A DNA stretch of 51,700 nucleotides, from assembly GCA_964400575.1 (NCBI GenBank), contig CAYNVA010000379.1, positions 1 to 51,700 of the forward strand, in the 5' to 3' direction. The notes beneath the pieces are model-generated. The model did not search any database and had not been told where the DNA came from. It saw only the letters and a list, made by a program, of their open reading frames with translations. Origin of the DNA: an uncultured Thermodesulfobacteriota bacterium (GTDB lineage: Bacteria; Desulfobacterota; WTBG01; CAIYCZ01; CAIRTM01). The translations under genes and the position numbers were made by a program. Positions 12,449-46,677 of this stretch are shown piece after piece; within the stretch, counting starts at the first letter, position 1; the number at the start of each line of letters is the position of its first letter.

Positions 12449-12572
12449 TTTAATCGCACCGCTCGCTTTTTTGCCCGGACGCCCCGGCCCACAACTTGCG
12501 GCTGATTTTATATTGACACACAATCCCCCTCAGCCTATATTCGCCCCGGCTCAAAGCGGGTTCCTGTCAATT
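12449..12572 (+). repeat. promoter-bearing interspersed repeat, copy 1
   Basis: Aligns along its length with 18076-18199 and, as reverse complement, with copies 3-6. Confidence 0.85.
12513..12541 (+). promoter_or_regulatory. consensus sigma70-type promoter inside repeat copy 1
   Basis: TTGACA (12513-18), 17 nt spacer, TATATT (12536-41). Confidence 0.65.
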
Positions 12573-12662
12573 CTCATCATGTCGCCCTTCCTTATATGCT
12601 TCGCCTGAAGGCGCGGCGGGTTCAACCTTGCCAGTGCGCAGCGCTCAGTTCTGCATAACACA

Positions 12663-12780
12663 ATAAAGGGGGCTGAACAGCTATTCACCCTGAGGTATCC
12701 AAGGGCGACCGGCATTGGCTCATGCTTCGATACCTCAGGGTGAACCGTAAAAGAAGCACCGGAGAAACCGGCCCCTTTAT
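12663..12780. other. nested hairpin element
   Basis: The outer arms are ataaagggggc and gcccctttat. The inner stem is a perfect 16 bp pairing, ttcaccctgaggtatc (12684-99) with gatacctcagggtgaa (12729-44). Confidence 0.6.
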
Positions 12781-12794
12781 CGTATGATGTTGTA

Positions 12795-13499
12795 CTAAGG
12801 TGCTTTATAGTCGATCATCTCAATGTAGCGCTTCGGTGTGCCGGGAGGGCCTTCGGGCCCCTTGTACATGACCATATAGTGCGGTGGTTTGACGGTGTAC
12901 CACAATTCAAGCTCCGGCAGAATGGTGGCAAAGAATCCATCAATTCCAAATTCAAGTTTGTAGCATTCTATATCGCTACCGTTAATTTTGACTCGTTCCC
13001 GATCTTTATTCCTGACGCAAAGGTTGAATTTCCCCCCCCCGCTCCCGCCGTAATACCTGATGCTGATTTTATTTTTTGATTCAAAAGGAAATCCCCTTAA
13101 TAAATGCGTTAAAGCAACAAAGTGGGGTACTGTAACAGCATCATCCCTGGTGTTAGGTTTCGTGTCCCTGATAATGAGTTTGGAGTCCAGGGTCGCAGCG
13201 TCATATTTTTGGATGGTGTGGACAGAGGATACCGTCATATCCTTTCTGTCAATACGAATATAAGTATCCAACGCCGGCGACCGGGAAGAAATTTCGTATA
13301 AGGTCTTTTGCCCCTCGCTGATTAAGATAATTTGTTCCTCCATGATTATGGTTTTGCCTTCGCTCTGGCTTCTGTATGTAATTGTTTCACCGTTGGGTAT
13401 CTCAGGGTCAAGAAACTGAAAGCCCGCCCAACTGATATCACCGATGAGCGCCGGCAGGAAAGCCATCCAGAAGACAAACAGTGTTGAGCGAAAATTCAT
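12795..13499 (-). CDS. exported hypothetical protein
   Basis: ATG 13499 is preceded by AAGGTGG. A hydrophobic signal-like N-terminus is present. The gene looks AT-rich. Confidence 0.6.
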   Translation of the reverse strand: MNFRSTLFVFWMAFLPALIGDISWAGFQFLDPEIPNGETITYRSQSEGKTIIMEEQIILISEGQKTLYEISSRSPALDTYIRIDRKDMTVSSVHTIQKYDAATLDSKLIIRDTKPNTRDDAVTVPHFVALTHLLRGFPFESKNKISIRYYGGSGGGKFNLCVRNKDRERVKINGSDIECYKLEFGIDGFFATILPELELWYTVKPPHYMVMYKGPEGPPGTPKRYIEMIDYKAP

Positions 13500-13540
13500 A
13501 GTAACGACCACCTTCATACAGCATATCCAAAAGACGATAT

Positions 13541-15913
13541 TCAGTTAATTATATCCGGCTGTTCATGCACGATGATTTCTCCCTTATATCCGTCGACTGC
13601 AACGATGGTACCGTCAATCAGGGAACATGCTCCGTCAATAGAAGTGATGGCAGGGATTTTATATTCACGGGCGAGAATGGAACAGTGGGAAAGAATGCCG
13701 CCCGCTTCAGAAATGATCGCGCCAGCTTTAGCAAACAAGGGCGCCAGCCCTATATCTGAATAAGGTATTACGAGAATATCACCCTGATGCATTTTTATAT
13801 GTTCCTTGATGCCGTTAACGACTTTCACGCGCCCGCAATAATATCCACGAGATGTGGCGATGCCTTTAAAAGAGCTTTTTTTCGAAAGTCCAGCAGGAGG
13901 TTCCTGGTCGCCGTAAATAATATTCGGTAGTTCTATATTTTTATATTGGGCGATTTCCTGTTTGCGCCTGGCAATTGCCTTTATGTGCGAGTCGCTAAAA
14001 ACACCCGAATATGCGATTTCTTTAATTTCATCAAAAAACAGAAGGAAAATGTCCTCTGTTGTTTCAATATATCCTTTTTGTTTATATAAAACGCCCATAT
14101 TCAAAAACAAATTTCTTAACAGACCATAACTATAGGTATAAAGATAACTGACCGCTTCCTTATATCTTCTGTTTCTTTGAACCTTTTTAAGGGTTATGTG
14201 CAGCAGCCATTTTTTGAAAAAGGGGACATGTTTCAGGATATCGATATCCTGATGGGTCGATTGGTTCATTTGATTTTCATAGTTCGCTACAATGTGCAAT
14301 ATTAAAGCCGGGGTCTCCCGCCAGGGCGGGCAGGAGAAGTCATTGCCACTGTCGCTGACATGTCCAAACCGTTCCAAAAAACCGGCCATCTCAGCTTTGA
14401 AACCGTCAATACCTTGTAACGGTAAAAAATCATTGTATGAGATCTTTTTTATTTTCTCTTGCTGTACGGGGCTGAGTTTTCTAAATTGTTTATGCAGCCT
14501 GTGCAAATGCATGGTGGGGTCAAAATTTTCCAGATCTTTTGCGTCCCCAACCCTCGCCAGAGCTTCAGCATCAAACCCTTGTTGAGCAAGCAGGGTTCTG
14601 AGCAGATAGGTGAACACATACAGAATGAGCGGTGTTACAAGGTAGTAATAGCTGATCTCTGCGGTCAGCTTTAATAAGCCTTCAATTTTTTTCAATAGTT
14701 GTTTTTCAGTCAACCGGGCAGGATCAGCGGTACCGAAGCCCTTAATTTTAACTTCCATTTCTTTTAAAAAAGGATCCAGCTTTCTGGAAAATCTTATTTT
14801 GTCCAAAATGAATAAAAATACTCGCGGCACGAATATAAGGGACCGCAGTCCCGGCCGGTAGTACAGCTTTTTCGAACGATCCATGTCACCGCTGAAAAGC
14901 GTATGTAATGTTTTATTTGAAAACCCAAGCTGTTTGAAAATACTTTCGATCACACCGGTATTAAAGTACGCTCGATAATAAAATGCTTTTGCCAGACGAA
15001 GGGCATCAAGGTCATTGGGACCGAGCATCTCAGTCAGCATTGCAATCCAGGCGCCGTTAATCAGGGGGATGTTAATCGACCAGACGAGCGGCTTGATGAT
15101 GCCGGGTAGAAACTCCTTTGAAAAATTATTTGTGTAGACATTAACTGACTGCACTACGGTTATTTCTCGCAATTGCAGCCAGTATAACTCCTGACCATTA
15201 AAGCACCATTCGAGATCAAGGGGTTTCCCATAGCGCCGTGAGATCTTTTTTGACTGTCTGACCAGCCGAGCAATAACTTTTCTGGATAGTATGTTTCTGC
15301 CGGGTTCTTCCACATACTCATCCTGATCGATAATCCAGCGAAAAGGGGTTCTGCCGCTCTGAAAAAGTCCTTCACCATTATCCTTGACGGCCTCAATAAT
15401 CGTTTCATTATGGCCGGTCACCGGGTTTCTGGTAAAGACGACTCCGGCGAAAACTGCTGTAACCATCTCCTGAATGATGACAGCCATCAGAAAATCGTTT
15501 GATTGTGCGCCCGTTTTATTGATATAGGACCGAACCTGCTCCGAATCCGCTTTTTGCCAGACAGTTTCGATGGCATTCATGACAGCATCGACGCCCTGTA
15601 CATTCAGCACAGTTGTGAAAAGGCCCGCGTAGGAATACTGGCTGTTGTCCTCGCGGTTCGATGAAGAACGGACAGCAAAGGTTTTATTATTGTTTGCTAT
15701 TGGAAATAGCGCGTCGCGAACCGCTTTTTTGGTTTCATCGGGATGGGATAAAAAGTTTTTATACGCCTCCCAGGTGCAGATATATGTCTCAGGGATGCTG
15801 CACTGAGAATCGCGGAGAAAAAGAAGCGAACGGGCTTTGTTGCCGATTGGGGAATTGCTGGAGCAATCGCTCAGTTTGACAATATACTCAAGTGCCATAA
15901 GCCATTCCATCAA
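13541..15913 (-). CDS. PEP-utilising enzyme family phosphotransferase (PpsA / rifampicin-phosphotransferase-like architecture)
   Basis: 790 aa. It has an N-terminal PEP/pyruvate-binding ATP-grasp region and a C-terminal swivel domain with GGILSHCSILAREYKIPAI (phospho-His). Confidence 0.75.
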   Translation of the reverse strand: MMEWLMALEYIVKLSDCSSNSPIGNKARSLLFLRDSQCSIPETYICTWEAYKNFLSHPDETKKAVRDALFPIANNNKTFAVRSSSNREDNSQYSYAGLFTTVLNVQGVDAVMNAIETVWQKADSEQVRSYINKTGAQSNDFLMAVIIQEMVTAVFAGVVFTRNPVTGHNETIIEAVKDNGEGLFQSGRTPFRWIIDQDEYVEEPGRNILSRKVIARLVRQSKKISRRYGKPLDLEWCFNGQELYWLQLREITVVQSVNVYTNNFSKEFLPGIIKPLVWSINIPLINGAWIAMLTEMLGPNDLDALRLAKAFYYRAYFNTGVIESIFKQLGFSNKTLHTLFSGDMDRSKKLYYRPGLRSLIFVPRVFLFILDKIRFSRKLDPFLKEMEVKIKGFGTADPARLTEKQLLKKIEGLLKLTAEISYYYLVTPLILYVFTYLLRTLLAQQGFDAEALARVGDAKDLENFDPTMHLHRLHKQFRKLSPVQQEKIKKISYNDFLPLQGIDGFKAEMAGFLERFGHVSDSGNDFSCPPWRETPALILHIVANYENQMNQSTHQDIDILKHVPFFKKWLLHITLKKVQRNRRYKEAVSYLYTYSYGLLRNLFLNMGVLYKQKGYIETTEDIFLLFFDEIKEIAYSGVFSDSHIKAIARRKQEIAQYKNIELPNIIYGDQEPPAGLSKKSSFKGIATSRGYYCGRVKVVNGIKEHIKMHQGDILVIPYSDIGLAPLFAKAGAIISEAGGILSHCSILAREYKIPAITSIDGACSLIDGTIVAVDGYKGEIIVHEQPDIIN

Positions 15914-16151
15914 TTTTATTAATCGTCTGTGATAAAGTATAAATCAAATACAGGTCCTAAGTGTGCCCGGCTTTTCCCCGACCGTAAAGATTTTGCTGCA
16001 TGGCGGCCATAGTATGCTTAACAACAAGAACCACAGGACAATTGCAGAGACAAACTAATTATAAAACGCACCTGTCACAACGGCCGAACCGTCAAAAACC
16101 CCTGTGCGGGTCAGCCGGCAGGGCTCTATGTTCAAGCAGAAAATAAAACGA

Positions 16152-16820
16152 TCAAACCGGGAAAAATATTCGGGAAATCTTTTTAAAACTTCCCATTAAC
16201 GCCTTTTTGTTTAATGGATCGCTGTTAAAAATTTGATAATAGTTATAGTCATCAAGCTTCAATCTGTTGTTTATAAAAATTGTCAGACTTAAAAATAGGC
16301 AGAAGGTTGTAAAGTAAACATCGTTTTCGACGAGGTGAAATATAACCGGCAACAATAAGATGGGTATCGTTTTTATTTTAGGATTGTTTTTTGAGATAAA
16401 AACAACAGCAGCCCATACGACGAGTAATAGCATACATGCATAAGGCGACAGAATCAGCAGGCTCCAGACGGCCACCGTAGTTCCCTTACCCCCTTTGCCT
16501 TTGAGAAAGATTGAAAAACTGGTGCCCAAAAACGCAAGATATACAAATAGCAGTGTTACGTTCAGATTGCCCTCAAATACATATTTAGCGGTCAGAATGG
16601 GAAAGACAGCCTTGGTTATTTCCCCTCCTACCGTAAAAATTCCAACGGCCATGCCACCCGCTTTAAACGCATTGGTGACGCCGATATTGCCGGTGCCTTC
16701 TTTGGCCAGGTTTCTTTTTTTGAACAGCCAGGTGGCGATGCATGCATAGGGCAGAGCGCCATAGAGATATGCCGCAATTGCAAAAAGTGTTAATTGCAGG
16801 TAGTCCAAATTGGTCCTCAT
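16152..16820 (-). CDS. PlsY-family (glycerol-3-phosphate acyltransferase-like) membrane protein
   Basis: GTGNIGVTNAFKAGG and KGGKGTT motifs in a polytopic membrane protein. The internal ATG 16820 is chosen as start. Confidence 0.65.
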   Translation of the reverse strand: MRTNLDYLQLTLFAIAAYLYGALPYACIATWLFKKRNLAKEGTGNIGVTNAFKAGGMAVGIFTVGGEITKAVFPILTAKYVFEGNLNVTLLFVYLAFLGTSFSIFLKGKGGKGTTVAVWSLLILSPYACMLLLVVWAAVVFISKNNPKIKTIPILLLPVIFHLVENDVYFTTFCLFLSLTIFINNRLKLDDYNYYQIFNSDPLNKKALMGSFKKISRIFFPV

Positions 16821-16931
16821 AAGTAAAGTCAAAACCACCTGCACAGCCGGGGGTGGCCTGTTCTCGGTCTGAAAGGGGGCCAATCAAAGACACAGAGCGT
16901 TTGCATTGCCTATTCCGGGAAAAAACAAAAA

Positions 16932-17639
16932 TTATTTTTTGGTGCGAATGCCGCACAGCTGTTTCCAAAACAGGACAACCATCGCAACAATTAAAAAAGC
17001 AACGACTGACAAAACAATTATATCCTTTGAAACACCTTTTTCCAAAACAATTTTAAATTGATCACCGACGACCGTCATGATTATCACAGAGGGTGCGATA
17101 CCGATAATGGTTCCCGCAGCATATTTCATGAAGGGTATATGAAAAGCCCCCGCAAGAAGATTGGTCACGGTATAGGGCGCTGCCGGCAGGAGTCGCGAAA
17201 AAACAATGGCCAGGAAGCTATGCCGTGAAAGTATTTGTCTGACCTTGTGCAGTCGATTGCCCTGCAGGACAGCAATTGTTTTTTGGTTAAAATAATATCC
17301 CAGCATATATAAAACCGTCGCATTGACAAACAAGGCAATCAAAGAATAGCAAAAACCCTCTGCGGGTCCAAAGACAAAAGCTGTTGCGGGAATGAGAATG
17401 ACAATCGGGAACGCAACAAGCCCGCTAATGGTATATACGAAGACAACTGCCAGACACGCCCGCAGGCGTGAATCAAAAAAAAGGGATGAAGATAAAATAT
17501 TTTCTATGTCGATCAGCTTTCCCAGTGGGGTGAAACGCCAGGCAAAGGAGAGGAGGATAAGCATGAGTATCATGAATACCCATAGAATCAACCGAACTTT
17601 CGTTGCCAGCGAGCTTTCTTTTTCCAACAATGCTTTCAT
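16932..17639 (-). CDS. TVP38/TMEM64 (DedA-related) family membrane protein
   Basis: 235 aa polytopic protein with FRLLPAAPYTVTNLLAG-type motifs. Confidence 0.65.
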   Translation of the reverse strand: MKALLEKESSLATKVRLILWVFMILMLILLSFAWRFTPLGKLIDIENILSSSLFFDSRLRACLAVVFVYTISGLVAFPIVILIPATAFVFGPAEGFCYSLIALFVNATVLYMLGYYFNQKTIAVLQGNRLHKVRQILSRHSFLAIVFSRLLPAAPYTVTNLLAGAFHIPFMKYAAGTIIGIAPSVIIMTVVGDQFKIVLEKGVSKDIIVLSVVAFLIVAMVVLFWKQLCGIRTKK

Positions 17640-18039
17640 TTGGATTTTTTAAAAAACTCTCGTAGCTGAGAGCACGGTTTGTCTGAATGCACCGGTTTGC
17701 TCACGGAATTTTCCATTTCGATTTGCATCGGTTATTCCGCGGCATAAAAACAGAATTCTCCGAAACTCCGGGCCAGAGCATTTCTCAAAAAAATACCGTC
17801 ATAATTCTGATGAACTTTTGGTGAGAACAGCCCGCGGGGTTCAAGCTATGATCCTCAGAATTCTATATGGACGAGCTTTTCCCCTCATATGACTGCGCCG
17901 ACCCTGATTATCCCTTTGAAGCCTCTCTGTGATTTGAAAAATCAGGCTTCCCGTGAGGGGTGCATACAAAAACAGCTCTCAAAAAAACCAATCTTATCTA
18001 CCGGGATGCCCCGCCTTGTAGGCGGGGAGCATCACCTAT

Positions 18040-18199
18040 CGCCACACTATCAGACGATGCAGCGCGCCACAACTTTTTAATCGCATCGCTCGCTTTTTTG
18101 CCCGGACGCCCCGGCCCATATCCTGTGGCTGATTTTATATTGACACACAATCCCCCTCAGCCTATATTCGCCCCAGCTCAAAGCGGGTTCCTGTCAATT
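18040..18199 (+). repeat. promoter-bearing interspersed repeat, copy 2 (long form)
   Basis: 18076-18199 is nearly identical to copy 1. 18040-18075 matches the extra segment (ccacaNatcagac...) seen in copies 5 and 6. Confidence 0.85.
18140..18168 (+). promoter_or_regulatory. consensus sigma70-type promoter inside repeat copy 2
   Basis: TTGACA (18140-45), N17, TATATT (18163-68). It faces the ORF starting at 18232. Confidence 0.65.
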
Positions 18200-18231
18200 G
18201 CCAAAACAACTCCTGCAATGAAAGGATACGC

Positions 18232-19023
18232 ATGGGAATTTTTTTCGTCTGCAGTGCAGCTTTCTTATGTTTGCTCCTCCTCGCGGCCATTTTATATGTG
18301 CGTACAGTACGGTCAGCGGCACAGTCCCTGTACGAACGTTACAACCGTTATGCGCGGCAGGTATTCTCAGAACACTTTGTTTTGCAGCCGGACCGGGTCA
18401 GGCCGGAATACCGCACGCTTCATCCGTGGAAAGCCCTCAAGCTGATTAGGATTGCCGTTGAACCCTGTCGCTCAGACAGATTCAGAAGAATCGGCATTGT
18501 CGATGCTACCCTGGGGTTTGCGGGAAAGATGTTTACTCTGTGTATCCAGCCTGACTACGGCTATAATCTGCCGGTCTTTGATCTTGAGGTTATCATTATG
18601 GGAAGCAGGCGGATTTTTGTCATCGAGTTTATTGATGCTGCCGGTGTATCCGACGATTATAAAGACCTGTGCTACGGCCGGATGAGGGCATTGAAGCTCC
18701 GGAGCCCAAAGCTTCAGGAGTTGCCCGTGACCCGGTGGTACCGGGATGTAGTTCCGGATTTCAGCATCCATGCCCGGGCACACTCCGATCAGGATGAGGA
18801 GCTTTTTACCCTCTTTCAGCACTATCTTGATGCCTATGTGGATATGGCGAAGCATGCCCCGCCAGCAAGCCAAGAAGTCCGGGCTCAGCTGCGCAGGGGC
18901 ATGGTGTGGTATACCGATACGCTTATAGAAAAAGGCGGCCCTGCCACAGATGTTTTCAAAATGCTTTTAGGAACGGAAGGAATGAAAGAGTATGTCAGAA
19001 CGGTCATGTTTTCCATTGACTGA
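18232..19023 (+). CDS. membrane-anchored hypothetical protein, possibly ferredoxin-dependent bilin reductase-like
   Basis: N-terminal TM helix. YNLPVFDLEVIIMG...FIDAAGV and the C-terminal LLGTEGMKEYVRTVMF resemble, from memory, the PiFGxDxV...DLxP and FGxEWxExYxxxxxF motifs of FDBRs. AAAGGA lies upstream of the ATG. Confidence 0.4.
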   Translation: MGIFFVCSAAFLCLLLLAAILYVRTVRSAAQSLYERYNRYARQVFSEHFVLQPDRVRPEYRTLHPWKALKLIRIAVEPCRSDRFRRIGIVDATLGFAGKMFTLCIQPDYGYNLPVFDLEVIIMGSRRIFVIEFIDAAGVSDDYKDLCYGRMRALKLRSPKLQELPVTRWYRDVVPDFSIHARAHSDQDEELFTLFQHYLDAYVDMAKHAPPASQEVRAQLRRGMVWYTDTLIEKGGPATDVFKMLLGTEGMKEYVRTVMFSID

Positions 19024-19222: not shown

Positions 19223-19248
19223 GACCGCATTTTAAAGAGTAGAAAAAA

Positions 19249-23509: not shown

Positions 23510-23989
23510 ATGCAGGCAAAAACAGTTAAGGAAAGCTCGGTTGTCACCTCCATCGTCATGATGCCCGAAGACGCCAATCCGGCGGGCAATGTGCATGGCG
23601 GCGTTATTATGAAAAATGTGGATACCACGGCCGGCGTTGCGGCCTTCCGGCATACGCGGTGCAATTCGGTGACAGCCTCCATCGACCGGCTGATATTTCT
23701 TTATCCCGTGTTTGTGGGCGACCTGCTCACCCTCAGGGCAAGCCTCAATATGGCCGGCCGGACATCCATGGAAATCGGCGTGCGCGTTGAAGCCGAAAAT
23801 CTGCTCAGCGGCGAGGTGCGGCACACGGCATCGGCCTACCTCACCTTTGTAGCCCTTGATAAAAGCGGTCGGCCAACCGAAATTCCATCCCTCATTCTTG
23901 AAACCGATGAGGAGAAGCGCCGCAACCGGCAGGCCCTTGCCCGGCGAGCAACACGGCTTGCCGAACGCGACCGCGAGGCAAAGCACTGA
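23510..23989 (+). CDS. acyl-CoA thioesterase (hotdog fold, YciA-like)
   Basis: MPEDANPAGNVHGGVIMK motif, 159 aa. Confidence 0.8.
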   Translation: MQAKTVKESSVVTSIVMMPEDANPAGNVHGGVIMKNVDTTAGVAAFRHTRCNSVTASIDRLIFLYPVFVGDLLTLRASLNMAGRTSMEIGVRVEAENLLSGEVRHTASAYLTFVALDKSGRPTEIPSLILETDEEKRRNRQALARRATRLAERDREAKH

Positions 23990-24061
23990 TGCGGGCACAC
24001 AGGGCGCAGCCTTGCGTCCCTCCCCGCCAGCGGCATGACCGCACGCATGCCTATGCAGAGG
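23967..24061 (+). repeat. direct repeat A (thioesterase 3' end plus downstream sequence)
   Basis: Aligns by eye with 25347-25441: gcgaccgcgaggcaaag...ctgatgcgggcacac...ccctccccgccagcggcatgaccg. Confidence 0.8.
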
Positions 24062-24097: not shown

Positions 24098-25249
24098 TCA
24101 TGATGGAAACTCGCCCGGTTTCAGTTGAAGCAGGAACTCCTCGCAGGGCACGCACAGGATACCCTCACGCAAAAGTCGCTCCTTCCCACGATACAGCAGC
24201 CAGCGGCGGCTTTCCGGGAAGTCTTCGCCGAAGTTTTTAAGTCCGCGCAGATGCTCCTGCCGCACCTGGTCGGAGTTCTTCACTTCCAGCGCGTGTAAGC
24301 CGCCCTCTCCATAGACCACGAAATCCACCTCCACTTTCGAACGTGTCTGCCAGTAATACAATTGATAATTGCCGCCAGAATACTCACACCACGCCCGAAG
24401 GTGTTGGGCAACCAGACTCTCCAGCGCAGCGCCATCGATCTCCGACGGAGCATCCAGTGGGCCGGACGGACGGTTGGCGCGGAAAACGCCGGCATCAAAA
24501 AAGAAAAACTTCGGATGCGCTGCCAGTTCGCGCTGCGCCCGCCGGGTGAAAACCGGCGCCCGAAAAGCCAGCAAAAGATCCTCGAGTATTTCCAGATAGC
24601 CCTCCACCGTCTTGCGGTTTACGTGGCACTCCCGGGCAACGTTGGCCAGGTTGAGCACGGCCCCCTGCGAAAAGCTGATGGCTTCAAGGAAACGGGAAAA
24701 GTTTCCGATATTGCGCACCAACCCTTCCATCTGCACTTCTTCCCGCAAATAGAGACCGCTATATGCGCGCAGGATTTCCTCGGGCGCCTTGCCCCCACGC
24801 ACGATCGGCAGCATGCCGAGGCGCAATGCCTCCTCCAGGTTGAATTGTGGGCCGAGTTCGGCGGCCATGAAGGGATACAGCGTCTTTTGCGCTGCCCGCC
24901 CGCCTAAAAGATTCACACCGCCGCGGCGAAGCTTGCGGGCGCTTGAGCCAGTGAATATAAATTGCACACCCCGCTTTTCCTCGATCATCAGATGGACGAC
25001 TTCCAGCAACACCGGCAGCTTTTGCACTTCATCGACGACCACTTGCAGGACGTCAGGCCGGGCCCCGATCAACTCCCGCAGACGCTCGGGTCGTGCAGAT
25101 AGCGATCGTAGCGTTTCCGGCTCCAGCAGATCTACCCGGAGCGCCTGTGGAAAAAGCCTCTGGGTTAACCAGGTCTTGCCTGTGCCGCGCGGACCCAACA
25201 GGAAGAAGTGGTCAGCAGGAGGTGTGAAAAATCGTGGTATTGATTCCAT
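24098..25249 (-). CDS. AAA family ATPase (COG1373 / DUF4143-type)
   Basis: The internal ATG 25249 gives MESIPRFF..LLGPRGTGKTW (Walker A) and VVDEVQ (Walker B). The upstream part of the listed ORF runs through the duplicated repeat and is probably not coding. Confidence 0.75.
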   Translation of the reverse strand: MESIPRFFTPPADHFFLLGPRGTGKTWLTQRLFPQALRVDLLEPETLRSLSARPERLRELIGARPDVLQVVVDEVQKLPVLLEVVHLMIEEKRGVQFIFTGSSARKLRRGGVNLLGGRAAQKTLYPFMAAELGPQFNLEEALRLGMLPIVRGGKAPEEILRAYSGLYLREEVQMEGLVRNIGNFSRFLEAISFSQGAVLNLANVARECHVNRKTVEGYLEILEDLLLAFRAPVFTRRAQRELAAHPKFFFFDAGVFRANRPSGPLDAPSEIDGAALESLVAQHLRAWCEYSGGNYQLYYWQTRSKVEVDFVVYGEGGLHALEVKNSDQVRQEHLRGLKNFGEDFPESRRWLLYRGKERLLREGILCVPCEEFLLQLKPGEFPS

Positions 25250-25346
25250 TTTGCGCCTCAAAATAGCATAAGCGGTGCTATTTTTATAGGATATTTTTCC
25301 AAAGTTGGCAACTGAAAAATTAGCAATTATGAATCTTCGTTTTTTG

Positions 25347-25441
25347 GCGACCGCGAGGCAAAGAAGTACTGATGCGGGCACACGGAGCGAAGCCTTTCGG
25401 CCCTCCCCGCCAGCGGCATGACCGTGCGCATGATACAGGGG
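25347..25441 (+). repeat. direct repeat B (diverged second copy of the thioesterase 3' end)
   Basis: See 23967-24061. It retains an in-frame ...DREAKKY-stop. Confidence 0.8.
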
Positions 25442-38956: not shown

Positions 38957-38969
38957 TGAAAAAATACTT

Positions 38970-39074
38970 TTACTTTTTCTTTGTTGCGCAGCCGGCTTTT
39001 TTAGCTGTGCAGCATGCTGCTTTCTTTTTTGGTGCTGCCTTTTTAGCTGGTGCTGCCTTTTTTGTTGCCGCCAT
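38970..39074 (-). CDS. 34 aa Lys/Ala/Pro-rich basic peptide (histone H1 tail-like), copy A
   Basis: My translation is MAATKKAAPAKKAAPKKKAACCTAKKAGCATKKK-stop. AGGAGG lies 5 nt upstream and a terminator lies downstream. It is below the ORF-track length cutoff. Confidence 0.65.
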   Translation of the reverse strand: MAATKKAAPAKKAAPKKKAACCTAKKAGCATKKK

Positions 39075-39180
39075 CATATCCTCCTATAAGGGTTAGTGGT
39101 GTTGTTTGCCCGACCTTTGTCAGGGATGTAAAGAAGAATCATTGATGCTCTACGGTCTTCTGTTGTTTTCTGCTGTATTC

Positions 39181-39218
39181 AAAAAAGGCAGGGTCGTTTG
39201 AACGACCCTGCCTTTTTT
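39181..39218. terminator. rho-independent terminator after K/A-rich gene B
   Basis: aaaaaa-ggcagggtcg-tttgaa-cgaccctgcc-tttttt. Confidence 0.7.
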
Positions 39219-39236
39219 GTTAAAAACAAGAGGCGG

Positions 39237-39341
39237 TTATTTTTTCTTCGGTGCTGCTTTTTTCTTCGGTGCTGCTTTTTTCGCTGCTGCCTTCTTCGGT
39301 GCTGCTTTCTTTTTTGGTGCTGCTTTCTTTGGTGTCGCCAT
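39237..39341 (-). CDS. 34 aa Lys/Ala/Pro-rich basic peptide (histone H1 tail-like), copy B
   Basis: My translation is MATPKKAAPKKKAAPKKAAAKKAAPKKKAAPKKK-stop. AGGAG lies 6 nt upstream. The leader is conserved with copy A. Confidence 0.65.
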   Translation of the reverse strand: MATPKKAAPKKKAAPKKAAAKKAAPKKKAAPKKK

Positions 39342-39446
39342 CGTATTCTCCTATAAGTTTGGTGGTGTTTTTTGTTTTGCTATTGTCAGCTATATGAAGA
39401 AGAATGCCTGATGCTCTACGGCCTTCTGTTGTTTTCAGAATTTTTC

Positions 39447-39485
39447 AAAAAAGGCAGGATCGTTCAGACGACCCTGCCTTCTTTG
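39447..39485. terminator. rho-independent terminator-like hairpin after K/A-rich unit C
   Basis: aaaaaaggcaggatcg-ttcaga-cgaccctgcctt, followed by ctttg. Confidence 0.55.
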
Positions 39486-39502
39486 TAAAAAAACAGATTC
39501 AG

Positions 39503-39577
39503 TTATTTCTTCTTAGCTGCCTTTTTCGGTGCAGCCTTCTTGGTTGCCTTCTTTGCAGGAGCTTTCTTAGTTGCGAT
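39503..39577 (-). pseudogene. third K/A-rich unit with ATC in place of the ATG (degenerate copy or non-canonical start)
   Basis: The frame reads (I)ATKKAPAKKATKKAAPKKAAKKK-stop. The position aligned with the ATG of A and B is ATC, and the RBS is weakened (aggaaagggg). Confidence 0.35.
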
Positions 39578-40720: not shown

Positions 40721-40805
40721 GAACGCTTTCTCCTTAATAATGGTTATTACAATAACTGCCTGTACTGATAATTAAATGATTTTGTCGACCAAAGCAAGTG
40801 TTATC

Positions 40806-41750
40806 ATGCGCTGTTGTGCGGTACTGGTGCTGCTGGTATGCGGCGCAGGGTATGCCGACTGCGCTCCGCCAGTGAAGCCATTGCGCAATCAGCGGGAGCA
40901 TTACCCGCATGTCATTCGCATGGATGAACTGCTGGCTCATGCCCAGAATATGGCCCCTGCAGGCGTCAGCCGGCGGCATGATACATCCGGGCCGCTGCCC
41001 GACTATCTTGAGGCTCTGCTTGCCGACGGCAGGCTTTCAATCGGCCTTGGCATCGGCACGGAAGACCTCGGGTCAGTACGGGTGCCTGCTCAGCATGAAC
41101 AGCGAACCATCAGGCGGCAGATGCGCATCTGCGGCAGGCCAGTGCTTGTGGAAGCCCGGCTCATCCTGACGCGGGAAGAATTCAAGCAGGGGCTTGCGGA
41201 GTGCGAAATTCTTTTCGTTACGTCACATTCACGCTTCGGCGCAGGCCCCGTTTTCCTGCTCGACGGCAAGGCATACCCCTTTCAGATGCAGACAACGCCG
41301 GGCTACGAAATTATCATGCCCGATGATGAAATCTGCGGCTATCCGGGCAGGGTAAAAAGGCGATTTTACAATAAAGGCAAAAACAAAAGCTACACGGTGT
41401 TTGAGCCTGACGGCTCCGATCTTGATACAGCACGGCCCCTGCACGCCTATCAGCTGCTGGTGCTTTCAACCTGCACGAGCCTGAAGCATTTCCGTGACGA
41501 GATACAATCTTTTCGCTCCATCTACCCCACCACCGCCATTTTTACCACGCGGGCAGCCTGCATGGACACGGGCATGAACATTTTCATGCGCATGCTTGCG
41601 GCAATCTTCCAGGCCCGCCCGCTTCCCGACATTGTGTCGGCCATGAATCAGGAGTACCTGGATGTTGCCGCCCGGCAGGTGCGCAAAGGGTCTGCCTCAT
41701 GGAAGGCAGTTGAGAAAATGTATACCCTGGGGATACATACATTGCCGTAG
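40806..41750 (+). CDS. exported hypothetical protein
   Basis: The internal ATG 40806 gives MRCCAVLVLLVCGAGYADC, a signal or lipoprotein-like N-terminus. No family recognised. Confidence 0.5.
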   Translation: MRCCAVLVLLVCGAGYADCAPPVKPLRNQREHYPHVIRMDELLAHAQNMAPAGVSRRHDTSGPLPDYLEALLADGRLSIGLGIGTEDLGSVRVPAQHEQRTIRRQMRICGRPVLVEARLILTREEFKQGLAECEILFVTSHSRFGAGPVFLLDGKAYPFQMQTTPGYEIIMPDDEICGYPGRVKRRFYNKGKNKSYTVFEPDGSDLDTARPLHAYQLLVLSTCTSLKHFRDEIQSFRSIYPTTAIFTTRAACMDTGMNIFMRMLAAIFQARPLPDIVSAMNQEYLDVAARQVRKGSASWKAVEKMYTLGIHTLP

Positions 41751-41757
41751 GCATTAA

Positions 41758-41890
41758 CTGATAGGAACTTGCTACGGGATGGGTTGAATATAAGAACGAG
41801 GGCGATTGTGTGTCAAGATTAATGTCGGCGCAAGATATGGGATGAGGTTTTTGGGGCGGCCTGCGATGAGGTGTTATGTCAACCGGCAAA
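41758..41890 (-). repeat. promoter-bearing interspersed repeat, copy 3
   Basis: ctgataggaacttgctacgggatggg...gattgtgtgtcaa core. Relative to copy 5 it has an internal deletion of about 45 bp. Confidence 0.8.
41787..41816 (-). promoter_or_regulatory. sigma70-type promoter inside repeat copy 3
   Basis: On the minus strand: TTGACA (41816-11), then TTATAT at N17 or TATATT at N18. It points into the convergent gene 40806..41750. Confidence 0.5.
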
Positions 41891-41892
41891 GT

Positions 41893-42183
41893 CTATCTAT
41901 TTTTCCAATAGTTCGGATCGCGGCGCAGATGCATAACCGCCATAATGACGATTCTGCCCGGCTGTTTTCGGAACAGGACACCGAAGGGAAACGTCTTGGT
42001 GAGGCACCGGCAAACGTCAAGCTCGACGATTGGGTACAGGTGGGGGTTTAGGTTGATGCGATTGACTGCGTCCTGAACCGAAGCCAGAAACCGTCTGCCA
42101 AGGCCAGGTTGCTGCCCTTCATAGTATGCCGCAGCCGCTATCATTTCAGATTCGGCATCGGGATGAAACTTTACGGTCTTCAT
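41893..42183 (-). CDS. RelE/ParE-family type II toxin
   Basis: The internal ATG 42183 gives MKTVKFHPDAESEMIAAAAYYE...IMAVMHLRRDPNYW, typical of ParE-like toxins. Confidence 0.75.
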   Translation of the reverse strand: MKTVKFHPDAESEMIAAAAYYEGQQPGLGRRFLASVQDAVNRINLNPHLYPIVELDVCRCLTKTFPFGVLFRKQPGRIVIMAVMHLRRDPNYWKNR

Positions 42184-42410
42184 GCGAGCGCTGCGTATGC
42201 CTTGGCGAAAACGGCTCCGGCAGCGCGAAGCTTTACTGCACCCCGGTCCATCTCCGCACAGCGTCGACGAATTTCCTTCTTCCATTTCACCGACGGAGGG
42301 GGGGCGTCAGGCACATCAAGACTCTCTATCAATTTCTCGGCCACAAACGCCCGCAGCGCCGGAGGAAGTCCCATTGCGTCCGCCATGACCTTTTCTGCTG
42401 TTGGCGCCAT
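42180..42410 (-). CDS. addiction-module antitoxin (putative, TIGR02574-like)
   Basis: 76 aa. There is a 4 nt ATGA overlap with the toxin start, and AAGGAG lies upstream. Confidence 0.6.
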   Translation of the reverse strand: MAPTAEKVMADAMGLPPALRAFVAEKLIESLDVPDAPPPSVKWKKEIRRRCAEMDRGAVKLRAAGAVFAKAYAALA

Positions 42411-42428
42411 AATTTTACTCCTTACTGA

Positions 42429-42559
42429 CTGATAGGAACTGATAGGAACTTGCTACGGGATGGGCAGAATATAGAACGAGGGCGATTGTGTGTCAATCTA
42501 AATATGGACGCAAGATATGGGCAGGGGCGTCCGGGCAAAAAATCCGCGGCGTGATTAAA
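42429..42559 (-). repeat. promoter-bearing interspersed repeat, copy 4
   Basis: It has the same core as the other copies. A terminal 10 bp tandem duplication, ctgataggaa x2, occupies 42429-48. Confidence 0.85.
42468..42496 (-). promoter_or_regulatory. consensus sigma70-type promoter inside repeat copy 4
   Basis: On the minus strand: TTGACA (42496-91), N17, TATATT (42473-68). It lies about 58 nt upstream of the antitoxin ATG. Confidence 0.65.
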
Positions 42560-42704
42560 TATCTTGCAGCTCGGCGGGCGGTTTGATCTTCGGCGGCGGT
42601 CGTTTTTGCATTTCCCACAGCCCCAGGTGCTGCAATATGTGTTTTACTACTTCGGGCTGATCTATGACGCTGATGAACATAGCACGGGCTAACGAATCAA
42701 AAGC
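42555..42704 (-). pseudogene. 3' relic of a transposase gene (C-terminus recalls IS91/Y2-type transposases)
   Basis: My translation is AFDSLARAMFISVIDQPEVVKHILQHLGLWEMQKRPPPKIKPPAELQDI-stop. An upstream in-frame stop is present. The stop codon sits inside the gattaaa end of repeat copy 4. Confidence 0.45.
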
Positions 42705-42870
42705 TCACCTGTGCAACGGCTATAAAAAAAAGAAAAATACTCTAGAGGCAATATGCAATAAATTCAGGCCATGATATTTTCAAGGCTATATCATGCAGTG
42801 TGTACCTTTATTACAAAAGCCTGGCCACTGCATATAGTGACCAGGCTTTTATGTTGCTCCAGTTTCAGGT

Positions 42871-45138
42871 TTACTCTTTTCCCACCATCGGGGCAATCGC
42901 TTCAAGAACACTTCTGACTGCAAGCCGAAGCGCCGGGCTGCGCTCAAAGGCGGCATTGATACTTCCGGCATTATTGTAATACGTGCTGATAATTTTTCGG
43001 CCAACCGTGCTTTGGACAAGTGAGCTGTCCCGAAAATCTCGCAAATTTTCAAGCCTCGGATTGTCCTCACCCAGAACCTTTTGCGCGGGGCATGGGCCGG
43101 CAGGAAGAACACCGATGTTTTTTTCATAGGCATTATCGGCCTCATTGCTCTCGGCGATGCTATTGGCGCTGTCAGCCCTCAAAGTGATCGTATGGGAGCC
43201 GGCGCTGAGTTCGCCCAGGGAGTAGTCCTGGATCGCAACATAATAACCTCTCTGCACAGAATCGGAGCGCCACCTTTTGACCTCAACATTATCCACCAGG
43301 AGGGAATAATCGAAAGCTGTCGTGATATCCGCCGCACTGTCATTCAGAACAGCCCAGTCCACATAGATGGTATCTGTGGTCGATAAATTTGCGTCATCAG
43401 TATTCGTGCCGGTTGTCCTGGACACTACAACGGGCGCGGACCAGCCGGAGGGCTGGTATGGCGCCAGATTCGGCATGGCGGCTGTGGTTGTCGTGGTGCT
43501 TGGCTGGACGGTTGTGGTTGCCCCCTCAGTAGCGGACATCGTCGCAAACATCGTCGGGCCTGAATCACTTATTGCGGTTACGCTCACGCCGCTTGCTGAG
43601 CCGCTCCAAAGGCTGCTGGCAGGTGAGGAGCTGTCTCCAAATGATCTGTTATTGGCGGAGCCGGGGTAGGCGTCCGCCTCATTGCCTGCATTGATTTTTT
43701 GCTCCAGCTCCCATAGGTTGTCGGCCTGCATGAGCGCCACATGATAATGCGTTGATGCGCAGCTTGGAGAACCTACGGGAAAGCATTCATTTGTATTTGT
43801 TGCGTGCCCCCATGGATCTAATATGCTTTCGTCAATATGCCATATCAGGAGCCCTGCGCCGGGCAGGCCAGCGTCAAAGCCTGTTTTCTGCCGGTTTTCA
43901 ACCAGAAAATACTCTCCTCCTGCCGATTGGCTGCCGCTGAGCAGCTGGTAGACATCATCACTTGTCTCCGCCTGCTGGATAGGCTCATTGGCCAGGGTGC
44001 CCGTAACAAGCGTCGGCGTTATCCAGCCAAGGGCGTATTTGCTCCATGCGTCCATATGGGAAGGGCTGTCGCCGCCAGTCGTCACATAGCACCAGCAACC
44101 GCCTGCCATAATGCTCCAGACGCCAACGCCGTGGGAGCTGCCATCCGTATCATAGAGATCGGGCAGCCCCAGTGAATGGCCGTATTCATGGGCAAAAACG
44201 CCCAGGGTGCTCATGATGGTTCCGTTGTACAGTTCGGGCATGATGATATACGCGTTTACCATCACACCGTCATCTGTCATATACGCTCCCCCGTCGCTGC
44301 AGCCAGCGCTATAGGCGTAATCAAGGGTATACGAGTGCGACCAGATATCATAGGTGTTTCGGGAAACTTCTTCGCCAATGCCCTGGTGCACGATGGCCAC
44401 CTGGTCGACATAGCCGTCAAGATCCTGGTCATAGGGCGCAAAATCAAACCCTGCGGCATCCGCGGCGATGACTGCCTCGCGCACGAGCGTTCCTACCCAC
44501 CTGTCATTCTGCTTATTATAATTTTCGCCATAGTAATCATGCGGTTTGGCCGCGGTATACCAGCCGGCCACCCCGCCGGGACCCGAGGACACGGAAAACT
44601 TACCGTACGACATTTCCTGGTAATAATCCTGCAAGCTGTATGTAGAGCTGCCAAAAAAAAGTCCGTCGAAATCCGACGCATTGTACGTGGTGAAGGTATC
44701 GCTGAAATTAATCAGAATGACGACAAGGTTTGCCGTGCCTGTCGGCGACACGGCCTTCCGAGGAAAATTTTCACCCTGCCACTGAATAAGCTGACTGTCT
44801 CGGGGGATAAAATGCCGTTCGATGCGCTTGCCCAGGCCTGCGGGTGGCGGTTCAATGCCCACCGTTCCGCCCATAAGAAATGGCCTGCCGGCAGCATCCT
44901 GAGTAATATACTTCCATTCGCCGGTTTTTTCATCACGCCGGATTGCATACCCGTCCTTTGTTTCCAAGCCGCTCCTGTGCTCATCGCCCCATTGAAACAC
45001 CTTGATAACCGTGCCATCGGGCTGAACAAGCGAATGCTCTATAGGCGCCGCAGGCATTGCCCAGGCGTGCCGACACAGGCCCGTGATACAGAAAAAGAAC
45101 AGCATAAAAAAAATACTGGCTGCAAAACGTTTATTCAT
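42871..45138 (-). CDS. secreted M6-family (immune inhibitor A-like) metalloprotease with CARDB-like C-terminal region
   Basis: Signal peptide, HEYGHSLGLPDLYD zinc motif, Thr-rich linker and a CARDB-like segment (NLAPY...NEADN). Confidence 0.75.
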   Translation of the reverse strand: MNKRFAASIFFMLFFFCITGLCRHAWAMPAAPIEHSLVQPDGTVIKVFQWGDEHRSGLETKDGYAIRRDEKTGEWKYITQDAAGRPFLMGGTVGIEPPPAGLGKRIERHFIPRDSQLIQWQGENFPRKAVSPTGTANLVVILINFSDTFTTYNASDFDGLFFGSSTYSLQDYYQEMSYGKFSVSSGPGGVAGWYTAAKPHDYYGENYNKQNDRWVGTLVREAVIAADAAGFDFAPYDQDLDGYVDQVAIVHQGIGEEVSRNTYDIWSHSYTLDYAYSAGCSDGGAYMTDDGVMVNAYIIMPELYNGTIMSTLGVFAHEYGHSLGLPDLYDTDGSSHGVGVWSIMAGGCWCYVTTGGDSPSHMDAWSKYALGWITPTLVTGTLANEPIQQAETSDDVYQLLSGSQSAGGEYFLVENRQKTGFDAGLPGAGLLIWHIDESILDPWGHATNTNECFPVGSPSCASTHYHVALMQADNLWELEQKINAGNEADAYPGSANNRSFGDSSSPASSLWSGSASGVSVTAISDSGPTMFATMSATEGATTTVQPSTTTTTAAMPNLAPYQPSGWSAPVVVSRTTGTNTDDANLSTTDTIYVDWAVLNDSAADITTAFDYSLLVDNVEVKRWRSDSVQRGYYVAIQDYSLGELSAGSHTITLRADSANSIAESNEADNAYEKNIGVLPAGPCPAQKVLGEDNPRLENLRDFRDSSLVQSTVGRKIISTYYNNAGSINAAFERSPALRLAVRSVLEAIAPMVGKE

Positions 45139-45405
45139 GAATCACTCTTACCGCAAGCGGAGTCAAAATACACCCCTGTTTTTGTATTAATTTCGTCCCG
45201 GCCGCGCTCTTTTTTTGAGCGACAAACTTAATCTAGTTTTACATATCAGACCGCTTGCCGCGTCACAAGATATTTCATCCACGGATATTCTCTTTCATAT
45301 TAAGCTAACCCGGATTATTCATGATGTTACATCAAAGCCAGTGCATGCGGGTGGCTACACATCAACAGCGTTTTTCTGTTTCGCGCATGCCTAGCACACC
45401 AACAA

Positions 45406-45598
45406 CTGATAGGAACTTGCTACGGGATGGAACTTGCTACGGGATGGGTTGAATATAGAACGAGGGCGATTGTGTGTCAAGATTAATGTCGGCGCAAGAT
45501 GTTGGATGGGGTTTTGGGTGCGGCCTGCGATTTAGAAATAAAAAATCTTGGGGCGCGGCGGGCGCCTCTGATATGTGGTGTTATGTAAACCCGAAAGG
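45406..45598 (-). repeat. promoter-bearing interspersed repeat, copy 5 (long form)
   Basis: It has the core plus the extended segment. A 17 bp tandem duplication, aacttgctacgggatgg x2, occupies 45414-47. Confidence 0.85.
45452..45480 (-). promoter_or_regulatory. consensus sigma70-type promoter inside repeat copy 5
   Basis: On the minus strand: TTGACA (45480-75), N17, TATATT (45457-52). It faces the protease gene. Confidence 0.6.
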
Positions 45599-45610
45599 AA
45601 AGATAAAAAG

Positions 45611-46438
45611 CTATTTCGTCTTGCGCCAGAAAACACCTGTCCAATCAATTTTTTTGATTTCATCATTAATTCCATTTGCCTTACGATAATCCAGAACGGC
45701 TTTATTACATGCAGGATAGCATCCGTAATCATCGACAATCACGTAGCCGCCGATGGAAAGTTTTGGATATAAATTCACCAAACTGTCCATGGTCGACTCG
45801 TAGAGATCTCCGTCGATCCGCAGCACAGCCAATTGATGAATTGGAGCCTTTGGCAAGGTATCTTTAAACCACCCTTTCAAAAAAACCACCTGACTGTCTA
45901 AAAGGTTGAAAGCTTCAAAATTAGCTTTGGTTTTTTCAATCGGACAAGTCATAGATGTATCTTGATACAAATTCATCCCTTTATCTTGAGGAAATTTATG
46001 CAAATCAGGTTTTGGACAACCTTCGAATGAGTCGGCTACATACACTTTCCGGTCATGGACGCCATACGCTTTCAGAATACCTCTCATAAAAATTGTCGCG
46101 CCGCCTCTCCACGCGCCGCATTCGATAAGATCGCCAGGAATCTTTCTCGAAAGAACATCCTCAACACAAAATTGAATATTATCCAGTCTTTTAATGCCGA
46201 TACATGTCATGGCAGTTGGAGGCGAGTCGTGCCCTTCTAACCTGGCCTGCGAATTCATCGGGGGTTTTTCCTCAGTTCCATATATCCAATTTGTTAAACT
46301 TTTCTTCATCAAGTCAAAGTATAAATCTTTAACATTCACTGCTTCAGAGTATTCGCTGGCAATGGCATTTCTATCTTCACAATAGCCATTAGAAGCAAAC
46401 AGAAAGATCATCGCCACCACAGCCGTTATTTTTCTCAT
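45611..46438 (-). CDS. TylF/macrocin O-methyltransferase-family SAM-dependent methyltransferase with N-terminal signal peptide
   Basis: GDLIECGAWRGGATIFMRG and LRIDGDLYEST motifs. The N-terminus is MRKITAVVAMIFLFASNGYC. AAGGAG RBS. Confidence 0.75.
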   Translation of the reverse strand: MRKITAVVAMIFLFASNGYCEDRNAIASEYSEAVNVKDLYFDLMKKSLTNWIYGTEEKPPMNSQARLEGHDSPPTAMTCIGIKRLDNIQFCVEDVLSRKIPGDLIECGAWRGGATIFMRGILKAYGVHDRKVYVADSFEGCPKPDLHKFPQDKGMNLYQDTSMTCPIEKTKANFEAFNLLDSQVVFLKGWFKDTLPKAPIHQLAVLRIDGDLYESTMDSLVNLYPKLSIGGYVIVDDYGCYPACNKAVLDYRKANGINDEIKKIDWTGVFWRKTK

Positions 46439-46507
46439 ATGTACTCCTTATAAGATCTCTCGTTTTTTTCAATTGCCTATTTCAGGTCTCAAACGTACAT
46501 TTAATTA

Positions 46508-46677
46508 TTGATAGGAACTCGCTTTGGGATGGGCAGAATATAAATTAAGGGCGGTTGTGTGTCAATACAAGGTTTGCCGCAAGATATGGGCAGGGCCGGT
46601 CGGGCCAAAAATAAGCGGCGTGATTAAATATCTTGCGGCGCGGCGGGCGGTCTGATATGTGGGTCAACCCGGAAGGC
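46508..46677 (-). repeat. promoter-bearing interspersed repeat, copy 6 (long form)
   Basis: ttgataggaactcgctttgggatgggcag...gtgtgtcaat...gtgattaaatatcttgc...tctgatatgtggg. Confidence 0.85.
46537..46565 (-). promoter_or_regulatory. consensus sigma70-type promoter inside repeat copy 6
   Basis: On the minus strand: TTGACA (46565-60), N17, TATATT (46542-37). It lies about 100 nt upstream of the methyltransferase ATG. Confidence 0.65.

Follow-up and report, generated by a model that had tools for sequence, protein, structure and literature searches.

What is the short, promoter-bearing repeat that occurs six times in one contig of an uncultured Thermodesulfobacteriota bacterium (assembly GCA_964400575.1, contig CAYNVA010000379.1, positions 1–51,700; this 51,700-nt stretch is the window analysed here)? 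We conclude, with a probability of roughly 0.8, that the six repeats are the oriIS-side right-hand ends of IS91-family insertion sequences (ISs), which are two-tyrosine HUH elements moving by rolling-circle transposition, and that each of these ends carries a promoter directed outwards. This conclusion is built on observed features, namely the identity of the repeat, its position after a transposase gene, the family of that transposase, the common end motif and a promoter-like pattern of conservation. The initial annotation had described an IS-derived, portable promoter cassette under selection for promoter function. The IS origin is confirmed and made specific by the transposase models and by the place of the repeat directly 3′ of the transposase gene. 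The self-contained cassette is not borne out, since the repeat is a transposon end, which is also a rolling-circle origin, and the window copies are 5′-truncated relics.

The window was scanned with the pattern TTGACA-N16–18-TATATT, and the chance level was taken from shuffles. The pattern matches exactly six times (Table 1), against 0.03 matches expected, and the shuffles never gave six; the six-copy repeat with its promoter hexamers is therefore real. The spacer measures 17 nt in five copies, and copy 3 has one additional T, giving N18 for TATATT, as the initial annotation had noted. The repeats are 125–220 nt long and were recovered independently by a repeat search (families D3, D6, D7, D8 and I1–I8) and by an nhmmer profile. 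In the six-copy alignment, which has a mean column identity of 57%, the invariant runs are TTGACACACAA and TATATTC. The conserved block runs ~35 nt beyond the −10 hexamer to a fixed end, ...GTTCCTAT, an extension that had been missed. Within the terminal 89 alignment columns, all 12 hexamer columns are invariant compared with 38 of the 77 others, which agrees with the claim that the promoter is the most conserved part of the repeat. The window promoters agree with the sigma-70 consensus at 11 of 12 positions with a 17-nt spacer, and they are the top sigma-70 match in both scanned regions. The copies group as 1 with 2, 3 with 5 and 4 with 6, giving at least three sub-lineages, and copies 1 and 2 are 95% identical in direct orientation. 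No intact element was found in the window; all six copies are 5′-truncated and keep the outer end. Rfam (gathering thresholds) and tRNA searches of the whole window found nothing, and blastn of the repeat against PLSDB plasmids gave no match.

The relatives of the repeat in other genomes identify the element. A scan for the promoter core, with one genome per species, gave 22 loci; the pattern forces the promoter to be present, so this set is unusable for testing promoter conservation. It places the family in at least eight uncultured 'Deltaproteobacteria'/Syntrophobacteraceae metagenome-assembled genomes (MAGs), often at contig ends. Blastn of these loci (loci outside the window carry L numbers) against the window revealed extra common blocks just 5′ of copies 2, 4 and 6. 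One upstream block reads ...VIDQPEVVKHILQHLGLWEMQKRPPPKIK, and in L016 (CAIWCT010000265.1) this is the C-terminus of a complete open reading frame (ORF) of 463 aa, which serves as our reference (463 aa from position 3120 or 445 aa from 3174, ending at 4511). The reference ORF matches the Pfam models Y2_Tnp (3.4e-21) and Zn_Tnp_IS91 (1.5e-19), and it scores 183 bits against the NCBIfam model NF033538, 'IS91 family transposase', for which the cut-off is 125. The HCH and YYGYY motifs are visible in its translation. In tblastn searches it aligns to ISCR1, ISCR2/ISVsa3 and IS91 over 87–94% of its length with 24–27% identity (E 1e-31 to 1e-35). The repeat corresponds to the ~220 nt directly 3′ of the stop codon of this transposase gene: L016 4540–4729 matches copy 6 with 86% identity (E 2e-59), and the other copies match too. 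Transposase C-terminal fragments lie directly 5′ of the repeat in constant orientation at copies 2, 4 and 6, where they had been missed in the initial annotation, and at L003, L007, L012 and L022.

Across the ~220 nt that follow the transposase stop codon, the order of parts is a terminator-like hairpin, an inverted repeat GCAAGAT...ATCTTGC, the outward TTGACA-N17-TATAnT, a conserved ~26-nt stretch ending ...GTTCCTAT and, lastly, a CAAN or CAGT tetranucleotide. The hairpin is seen between the stop codon and the promoter in copy 6 and in the full-length relatives L023 and L024, and its position suggests that the promoter opens a separate outward transcription unit. The relatives have two ends with no sequence relationship to each other. 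The promoter block and ...GTTCCTAT are common to the right ends, and the left ends of 12 full-length relatives carry a palindrome, TATAACA..TGTTATA, ~40–60 nt before the ATG, the exact left boundary being approximate. At the left end of L023–L033 the palindrome is perfect (TATAACA-NN-TGTTATA) and overlaps a promoter-like TTGCAT-N16-TATAyT; it may act as the terIS hairpin and also as an operator for the transposase gene. When this left-end palindrome was sought in the window, only a chance-level match and no left-end copy were found.

The continuity with a transposase gene bears on two other explanations. A host regulon, with a shared promoter/operator upstream of co-controlled genes and the flanking boxes as regulator sites, would place the repeat just 5′ of co-oriented ORFs, as is seen for four of the six window copies and for most copies elsewhere, and two related boxes do flank the promoter. 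However, the repeat is continuous with the transposase gene 3′ end in at least eight places, reaches 100–150 nt upstream of the −35 hexamer at 75–95% identity and breaks assemblies at contig ends, like mobile repeats. Its downstream genes have no common function, and two window copies face convergent genes. We regard a regulon as highly improbable. The second explanation is a promoter-bearing, non-autonomous miniature element that moves as a unit, similar to a miniature inverted-repeat transposable element. The copies are indeed short, dispersed, intergenic and promoter-bearing, and the Correia elements of Neisseria are likewise dispersed intergenic repeats able to supply promoter elements to neighbouring genes. 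Correia elements, however, are fixed units with terminal inverted repeats and TA target duplications, and none of these occurs here. The alignments contain neither terminal inverted repeats nor target-site duplications, and the inner boundaries are copy-specific and run into transposase codons, so that there is no fixed unit. A miniature element is thus very unlikely, although mobilisation of a lone oriIS end in trans, by one-ended transposition, is conceivable and would make it non-autonomous in that sense.

Promoter conservation was measured in a promoter-blind sample of 80 metagenome loci picked by transposase protein alone (63–92% identity). Where enough sequence was available downstream, the closest relatives have the same end; in all, 52 loci match it. 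Mean conservation over 20 lineages less than 88% alike is 1.00 for the −35 hexamer, 0.92 for the next 5 nt, 0.58 for the rest of the spacer and 0.92 for the −10 hexamer; the corresponding values are 0.64 for the first 14 nt past the −10 hexamer, 0.81 for the terminal 20 nt and 0.40 for the flank. The spacer length is kept at 17 nt (18 in a few lineages). The −10 hexamer varies mainly at its fifth position (TATATT, TATAGT, TATACT and TATAAA), which is only weakly constrained in sigma-70 promoters. At the equivalent place, a relative from a cultured bacterium (Trichlorobacter lovleyi pIAE1; 54.6% identity) reads TTGACG-N18-TATACA, and this element is present in 15 places on pIAE1. A sigma-70 promoter under purifying selection would be expected to show this pattern, and the selection would act on the IS family or lineage. 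The window copies come from at least three IS sub-lineages, and their common hexamers are thus inherited from functional ISs. Of four further relics, found by profile with no promoter required, three carry a hexamer mutation (L012, TTGATA; L008, TGTATT; L013, TTAACA/TATACA). The proposed selection on the promoter therefore stands at the level of the IS family, where the hexamers and the 17-nt spacing are kept, the spacer is free and, across the 20 lineages, the hexamers have not decayed at the rate of the rest of the element; retention of individual relics by the host is not supported.

The same conservation could also mark an element of the rolling-circle origin, a recognition site or hairpin for the HUH transposase, that is merely promoter-like. 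The block is located in the terminal ~66 nt of the element; in IS91, the final 82 bp are enough for origin function (PMC13181058). Furthermore, conservation exceeds the hexamers, extending over TTGACAYACAA, and an imperfect palindrome can form between TTGACA and the terminal TATCAA/TGTCAA, with the −10 hexamer in its loop; 80% of cells pair, compared with 30–40% in slid controls. However, this helix is without covariation (observed values equal those of shuffles), RNAalifold predicts no structure, and folding of each copy on both strands found no stable overall structure relative to shuffles (z −2.6 to +1.7), a result that also speaks against a structured RNA gene. Fixed hexamers at a fixed 17-nt spacing, a free spacer and a −10 hexamer varying mainly at one position match the sigma-70 pattern instead, and the ISCR1 promoters at the equivalent place are experimentally active (PMC6218425). 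We therefore consider it unlikely that the block only resembles a promoter; origin and promoter roles could coexist.

The promoter has a box on either side. The box CGCCCCGGC occurs twice in copy 1, and CTGCCCAT occurs twice in copy 4 and in copy 6. Common to them is a CCCAYA core, and a small palindrome (CCACATCTTGTGG in the more distant clade) contains the upstream box. Among 36 distinct elements, the two boxes of one element match at 5.2 of 11 positions compared with 4.5 of 11 for cross pairs (permutation p 0.002, ignoring relatedness). The initial annotation had taken the boxes as co-varying and possibly bound by a regulator. Both boxes exist, but their co-variation in the window amounts to about two independent cases, since copies 1 and 2 are near-identical and copies 4 and 6 are close relatives. 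Rather than host-regulator sites, the boxes are probably repeated sub-terminal origin motifs that serve as recognition sites for the transposase.

The flanks point to the putative outer terminus. In the IS91 family, oriIS is located after tnpA, a target tetranucleotide CTTG or GTTC lies beside it, and no target duplication is made (PMC13181058). The flanks of ~60 distinct ends of the present family diverge right after ...TTCCTAT and CAAN or CAGT (NTTG or ACTG on the other strand, resembling the CTTG of IS91), and no target-site duplication was seen at these ends. The terminal TTCCTAT is common to the annotated ISCR1 end, ...ACTTCCTATACCC, to a second ISCR-like element beside rmtC and to the T. 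lovleyi relative. A look-up via the TylF protein encoded between copies 6 and 5 returned no empty site or other context; the same arrangement was found in two Joint Genome Institute metagenome contigs and two ~1-kb Logan contigs.

Regarding the architecture of the relics, the inner boundaries vary continuously and the outer end is constant, with copy lengths from 7 nt to more than 500 nt. Neighbouring copies are co-oriented in 17 of 20 pairs and lie head-to-tail, sandwiching foreign-looking genes; the array of copies 6, 5, 4 and 3 encloses a methyltransferase gene of low GC, a gene for a peptidase and a toxin–antitoxin pair, beside a truncated murI. Tandem partial copies that end at the same terminus are found at 17 of 67 distinct ends, compared with 4.8% of control windows. 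They include 10 nt in copy 4, a 17-nt duplication in copy 5, 30–35 nt in L040, L085 and L099, 88 nt and ~14 nt in L008, and about a dozen 7–10-nt units in L024. The two cases in the window, with TTCCTATCAG present twice in copy 4 and the 17-nt unit twice in copy 5, are the micro-duplications that had already been annotated. A stutter of the last 4–10 nt (TATCAGT, ATCAAT or TCAAT units, up to ~12 in a row) directly follows the terminus in L024 (~1690–1790), L057, L058, L088, L092 and the window (42428–42448). The IS91-family papers cited here make no mention of such a stutter, which may reflect recurrent rounds of cleavage and rejoining at the origin.

Termination often fails in the IS91 family and leads to one-ended transposition (PMC13181058). 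Copies that agree at the outer end but differ at the inner one would form if rolling-circle transposition starts at the origin and stops early; alternatively, they would stem from one-ended events that pick up neighbouring DNA. New units would then insert beside an existing end because that end keeps the preferred target tetranucleotide, and head-to-tail arrays sandwiching cargo would be built up. The observed architecture fits transposition that begins at the origin, ends early or late and inserts next to an existing end, and homologous recombination between ends could give the same array picture. The 41.7–46.7 kb array also has the look of an integron-like cassette array with the repeats as attC-type sites: four repeats lie in the same orientation with one gene or toxin–antitoxin pair between each, the repeats adjoin upstream stop codons, and the cargo is low in GC. 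However, there is no long imperfect attC hairpin and no R″/R′ core pair, the copies fold like shuffles, and the repeats are already accounted for as IS91-family ends. The only tyrosine recombinases of the window (27242–29246) lie 13 kb off and, with 76 and 106 bits, score far under the integron-integrase cut-off of 265. Integron membership is thus refuted, and we leave next to no probability for it.

A co-oriented ORF begins within 350 nt of the −10 hexamer in four of the six window copies (copies 2, 4, 5 and 6; Table 1) and in ~18 of 26 evaluable copies of other MAGs, and copies 1 and 3 face convergent genes; the ORF relations given in the initial annotation are thus correct. No functional theme was found among the downstream genes of the window and the other MAGs. 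Their products include antitoxins (Unstab_antitox, VapB and HicB-like), methyltransferases, an M6 peptidase, a DNA-alkylation repair protein, a phosphotriesterase, a glycosyltransferase and an ABC permease. In the proposed mechanism, the promoter would fire outwards and transcribe the DNA past the end, in the manner of the ISCR1 POUT promoters, and the targets in the window would be the bilin-reductase-like gene, the antitoxin/ParE pair, the M6 peptidase gene and the TylF methyltransferase gene.

One of the nearest known counterparts is ISCR1. Its 232-bp oriIS region contains two outward promoters that raise downstream expression 13–15 fold, and a co-oriented gene lies downstream of 84% of ISCR1 copies (PMC6218425). 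Both elements have an IS91-type transposase, the reference aligning over 94% of its length, followed by a ~220–230-bp non-coding oriIS region with outward sigma-70-type promoters in the last ~75 nt (here predicted from sequence). Both end in TTCCTAT, and co-oriented genes commonly lie beyond the end (PMC6218425). However, the transposases are only ~25% identical. The two POUT promoters of ISCR1, PCR1-1 and PCR1-2, are weak (their sequences are TAAACG-N17-TAAGAT and TTCGGA-N18-TTTATA), and the present ends have one that matches 11 of 12 consensus positions. The ISCR1 end reads ...TTCCTATACCC, whereas here it is ...TTCCTAT followed by CAAN. The hosts also differ, being Gammaproteobacteria for ISCR1 and uncultured anaerobic Deltaproteobacteria (Syntrophobacteraceae-like MAGs) here, and the cargo in the present case does not consist of antibiotic resistance genes.

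IS91, IS801 and IS1294 resemble the present elements in their HUH/Y2 transposase with a zinc-binding N-terminal domain and in having two unlike ends. They make no target duplication, and none was seen here; the tetranucleotide read from the flanks here (NTTG or ACTG, on the equivalent strand) would be the counterpart of the conserved CTTG or GTTC beside oriIS in those elements. One-ended or aberrant events of those elements give copies with a constant ori end (PMC13181058), as would be the case here. Their sub-terminal palindromes are different in sequence, and an outward consensus promoter is not reported for them in PMC13181058. Lastly, in the ISCR28-sul4 'sandwich', as it is cited in PMC12772301, a gene lies between two oriIS ends of the same orientation, one of them from a truncated element. 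Its counterparts here are copies 1 and 2 with the island between them and the array of copies 6, 5, 4 and 3. Unlike that sandwich, the window has up to four ends in a row, its 51.7 kb lack an intact transposase, and housekeeping-like or toxin–antitoxin genes make up the cargo.

Several points weigh against reading the repeats as oriIS ends with working outward promoters. First, only one full-length element of the genome collection (L016) joins the exact end sub-family to a transposase, and the metagenome loci add more. Second, promoter activity in these bacteria is predicted from sequence alone, and the whole predicted promoter falls within the terminal region that IS91 needs for origin function, so that part of the conservation, such as that of CACAA after the −35 hexamer, may reflect recognition by the transposase and not by RNA polymerase. 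Third, some copies cannot serve a downstream gene, as two of the six promoters in the window point at convergent genes; the co-orientation counts use mechanical ORF calls. Finally, the cleavage point and the target tetranucleotide are putative, having been placed by where the flanks diverge.

Table 1. The six oriIS-end copies in the window, with their promoters, termini and nhmmer profile extents, and the features next to them. Matches to the reference are to L016; distances to downstream genes are from the −10 hexamer.
Feature	Position	Strand	Promoter	Terminus and tetranucleotide	nhmmer extent	Description
Copy 1	12432–12571	+	12513–12541	...CCTGT at 12567; CAAT 12568–12571	12432–12582	5′-truncated oriIS-end relic with ~125–140 nt of the end left; L016 4605–4724 matches 12445–12565; faces convergent gene 12795–13517
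Interval between copies 1 and 2	12572–17797	.				~5.2 kb of low GC (40–47%) with four minus-strand genes (DUF3108-like, PEP-utilising/PPDK_N enzyme, PlsY, DedA/VTT protein); read as cargo sandwiched by two oriIS ends
Copy 2	17798–18198	+	18140–18168	18194; CAAT 18195–18198	18058–18208	Transposase C-terminal remnant (17798–17932; reference aa 417–463, ending DPDYPFEASL and stop; tblastn match 17798–17929), then complete non-coding end
ORF after copy 2	18232–19023	+				Fe_bilin_red-like; co-oriented, starts 63 nt after copy 2
Copy 3	41757–41910	−	41787–41816	...CCTAT at 41761; CAGT 41760–41757	41749–41903	Relic with internal deletion and extra spacer T (N18); 5′ side adjoins the ParE stop codon; faces convergent gene 40776–41750
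Toxin–antitoxin pair	41893–42410	−				Between copies 4 and 3; antitoxin 42180–42410 (Unstab_antitox), ParE-like toxin 41893–42285
Copy 4	42428–42680	−	42468–42496		42428–42590	Transposase remnant (42606–42674; aa 405–427, 100% identical to the reference by tblastn) joined by internal deletion to non-coding end 42428–42590; terminal TTCCTATCAG present twice; antitoxin ribosome-binding site and ATG follow, 57 nt away
M6 (immune inhibitor A-like) metallopeptidase gene	42871–45138	−				Between copies 5 and 4; starts 313 nt after copy 5
Inverted partial copy	45241–45279	+				Inner IS-end part (reference 4577–4615); between copy 5 and the peptidase gene
Copy 5	45404–45605	−	45452–45480	CAGT 45408–45405	45429–45578	Relic beginning ~20 nt past the TylF stop codon; 17-nt tandem duplication near the terminus
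TylF-type O-methyltransferase gene	45611–46438	−				In a region of low GC (44%); between copies 6 and 5; starts 98 nt after copy 6
Copy 6	46507–46787	−	46537–46565	46511; CAAT 46510–46507	46496–46664	Last 12 transposase codons (46751–46787; DPDYPFEA..), terminator-like hairpin of the transposase gene (46721–46752), complete non-coding end

Additional observations concern the surroundings of the copies. The inverted partial copy between copy 5 and the peptidase gene was not in the initial annotation. At the start of the array of copies 6 to 3, the adjoining murI gene for glutamate racemase (Asp_Glu_race; 46963–47408, minus strand) is frameshifted and truncated after ~150 codons, and the array or a predecessor may have disrupted it. 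A 64-nt block at 42682–42745 recurs with 80% identity at L007 2302–2365; in both places it lies 3′ of the gene that follows the IS end, which in the window is the M6 peptidase gene and in L007 is metallophosphatase-like. Beside copy 1, a candidate seventh, internally deleted remnant at 12413–12436 was dropped, as the promoter scan assigns this site to a minus-strand TTGACA-N17-TATACT (12403–12431; 11 of 12 sigma-70 positions). This sequence faces the etfB–etfA–acyl-CoA dehydrogenase operon and is probably the operon's own promoter, outside the repeat family.

Elsewhere in the window, two adjacent, overlapping tyrosine recombinase genes (27242–28372 and 28284–29246, plus strand; Phage_integrase and SAM-like N-terminal domains) score under the XerC/D and integron-integrase cut-offs and are probably part of another mobile element with no relation to the repeat. 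The low-GC stretch beside this pair contains an ORF for a repeat protein (25784–26890, plus strand) with 129–150-nt periodic repeats (D5, D11, D16 and D17) and a weak DUF3466 match. A 69-nt direct repeat (23981–24049 and 25364–25432, 88% identical) brackets an AAA_14/DUF4143 ATPase gene (24098–25480, minus strand), and a related 25-nt piece is present at 6168–6192. The region 39000–39540 is T-rich on the plus strand, with 15–18-nt periodic repeats (GGTGCTGC TTTTTT...), and its minus strand would encode Lys/Ala-rich repeats. It includes a 162-nt duplication (39093–39254 and 39359–39520), each unit of which has a strong, bidirectional-terminator-like 45-nt palindrome (39180–39224 and 39441–39485). 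Lastly, a 300-nt tandem duplication at 47681–48337 (76% identical, spacing 357) within the ORF 47665–48507 (minus strand, weak Big_13 match) represents an internally duplicated domain of a protein that looks secreted.

The kind of element described here is already known, as IS91/ISCR oriIS ends with outward promoters have been reported (PMC6218425); the present one is environmental and unusually consensus-like. The outward promoter might even be a working part of the rolling-circle origin, which we regard as a long shot. Transcription starting ~20 nt before the nick (the −10 hexamer ends ~26 nt before it) would open the duplex for the single-strand-specific HUH transposase. With such coupling, an outward promoter would be kept at oriIS across distant IS91/ISCR lineages, and the activation of neighbouring genes and the gene-plus-origin arrays would then be by-products.

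Since the repeat is a mobile-element relic, the consensus promoters in this genome should not be annotated as host regulatory sites or as the signal of a regulon. The tandem partial copies at the terminus are possibly a useful footprint of how the transposase starts and stops. The finding extends what is known of ISCR1 from clinical Gammaproteobacteria to an environmental clade in anaerobic Deltaproteobacteria/Thermodesulfobacteriota of sediments and digesters. In the origin end of this IS91-family clade a predicted strong outward promoter is kept, and its conservation far exceeds that of the surrounding DNA. If these promoters are active, each insertion or relic would switch on the DNA beyond it, and the relic arrays would be small expression platforms for acquired genes.

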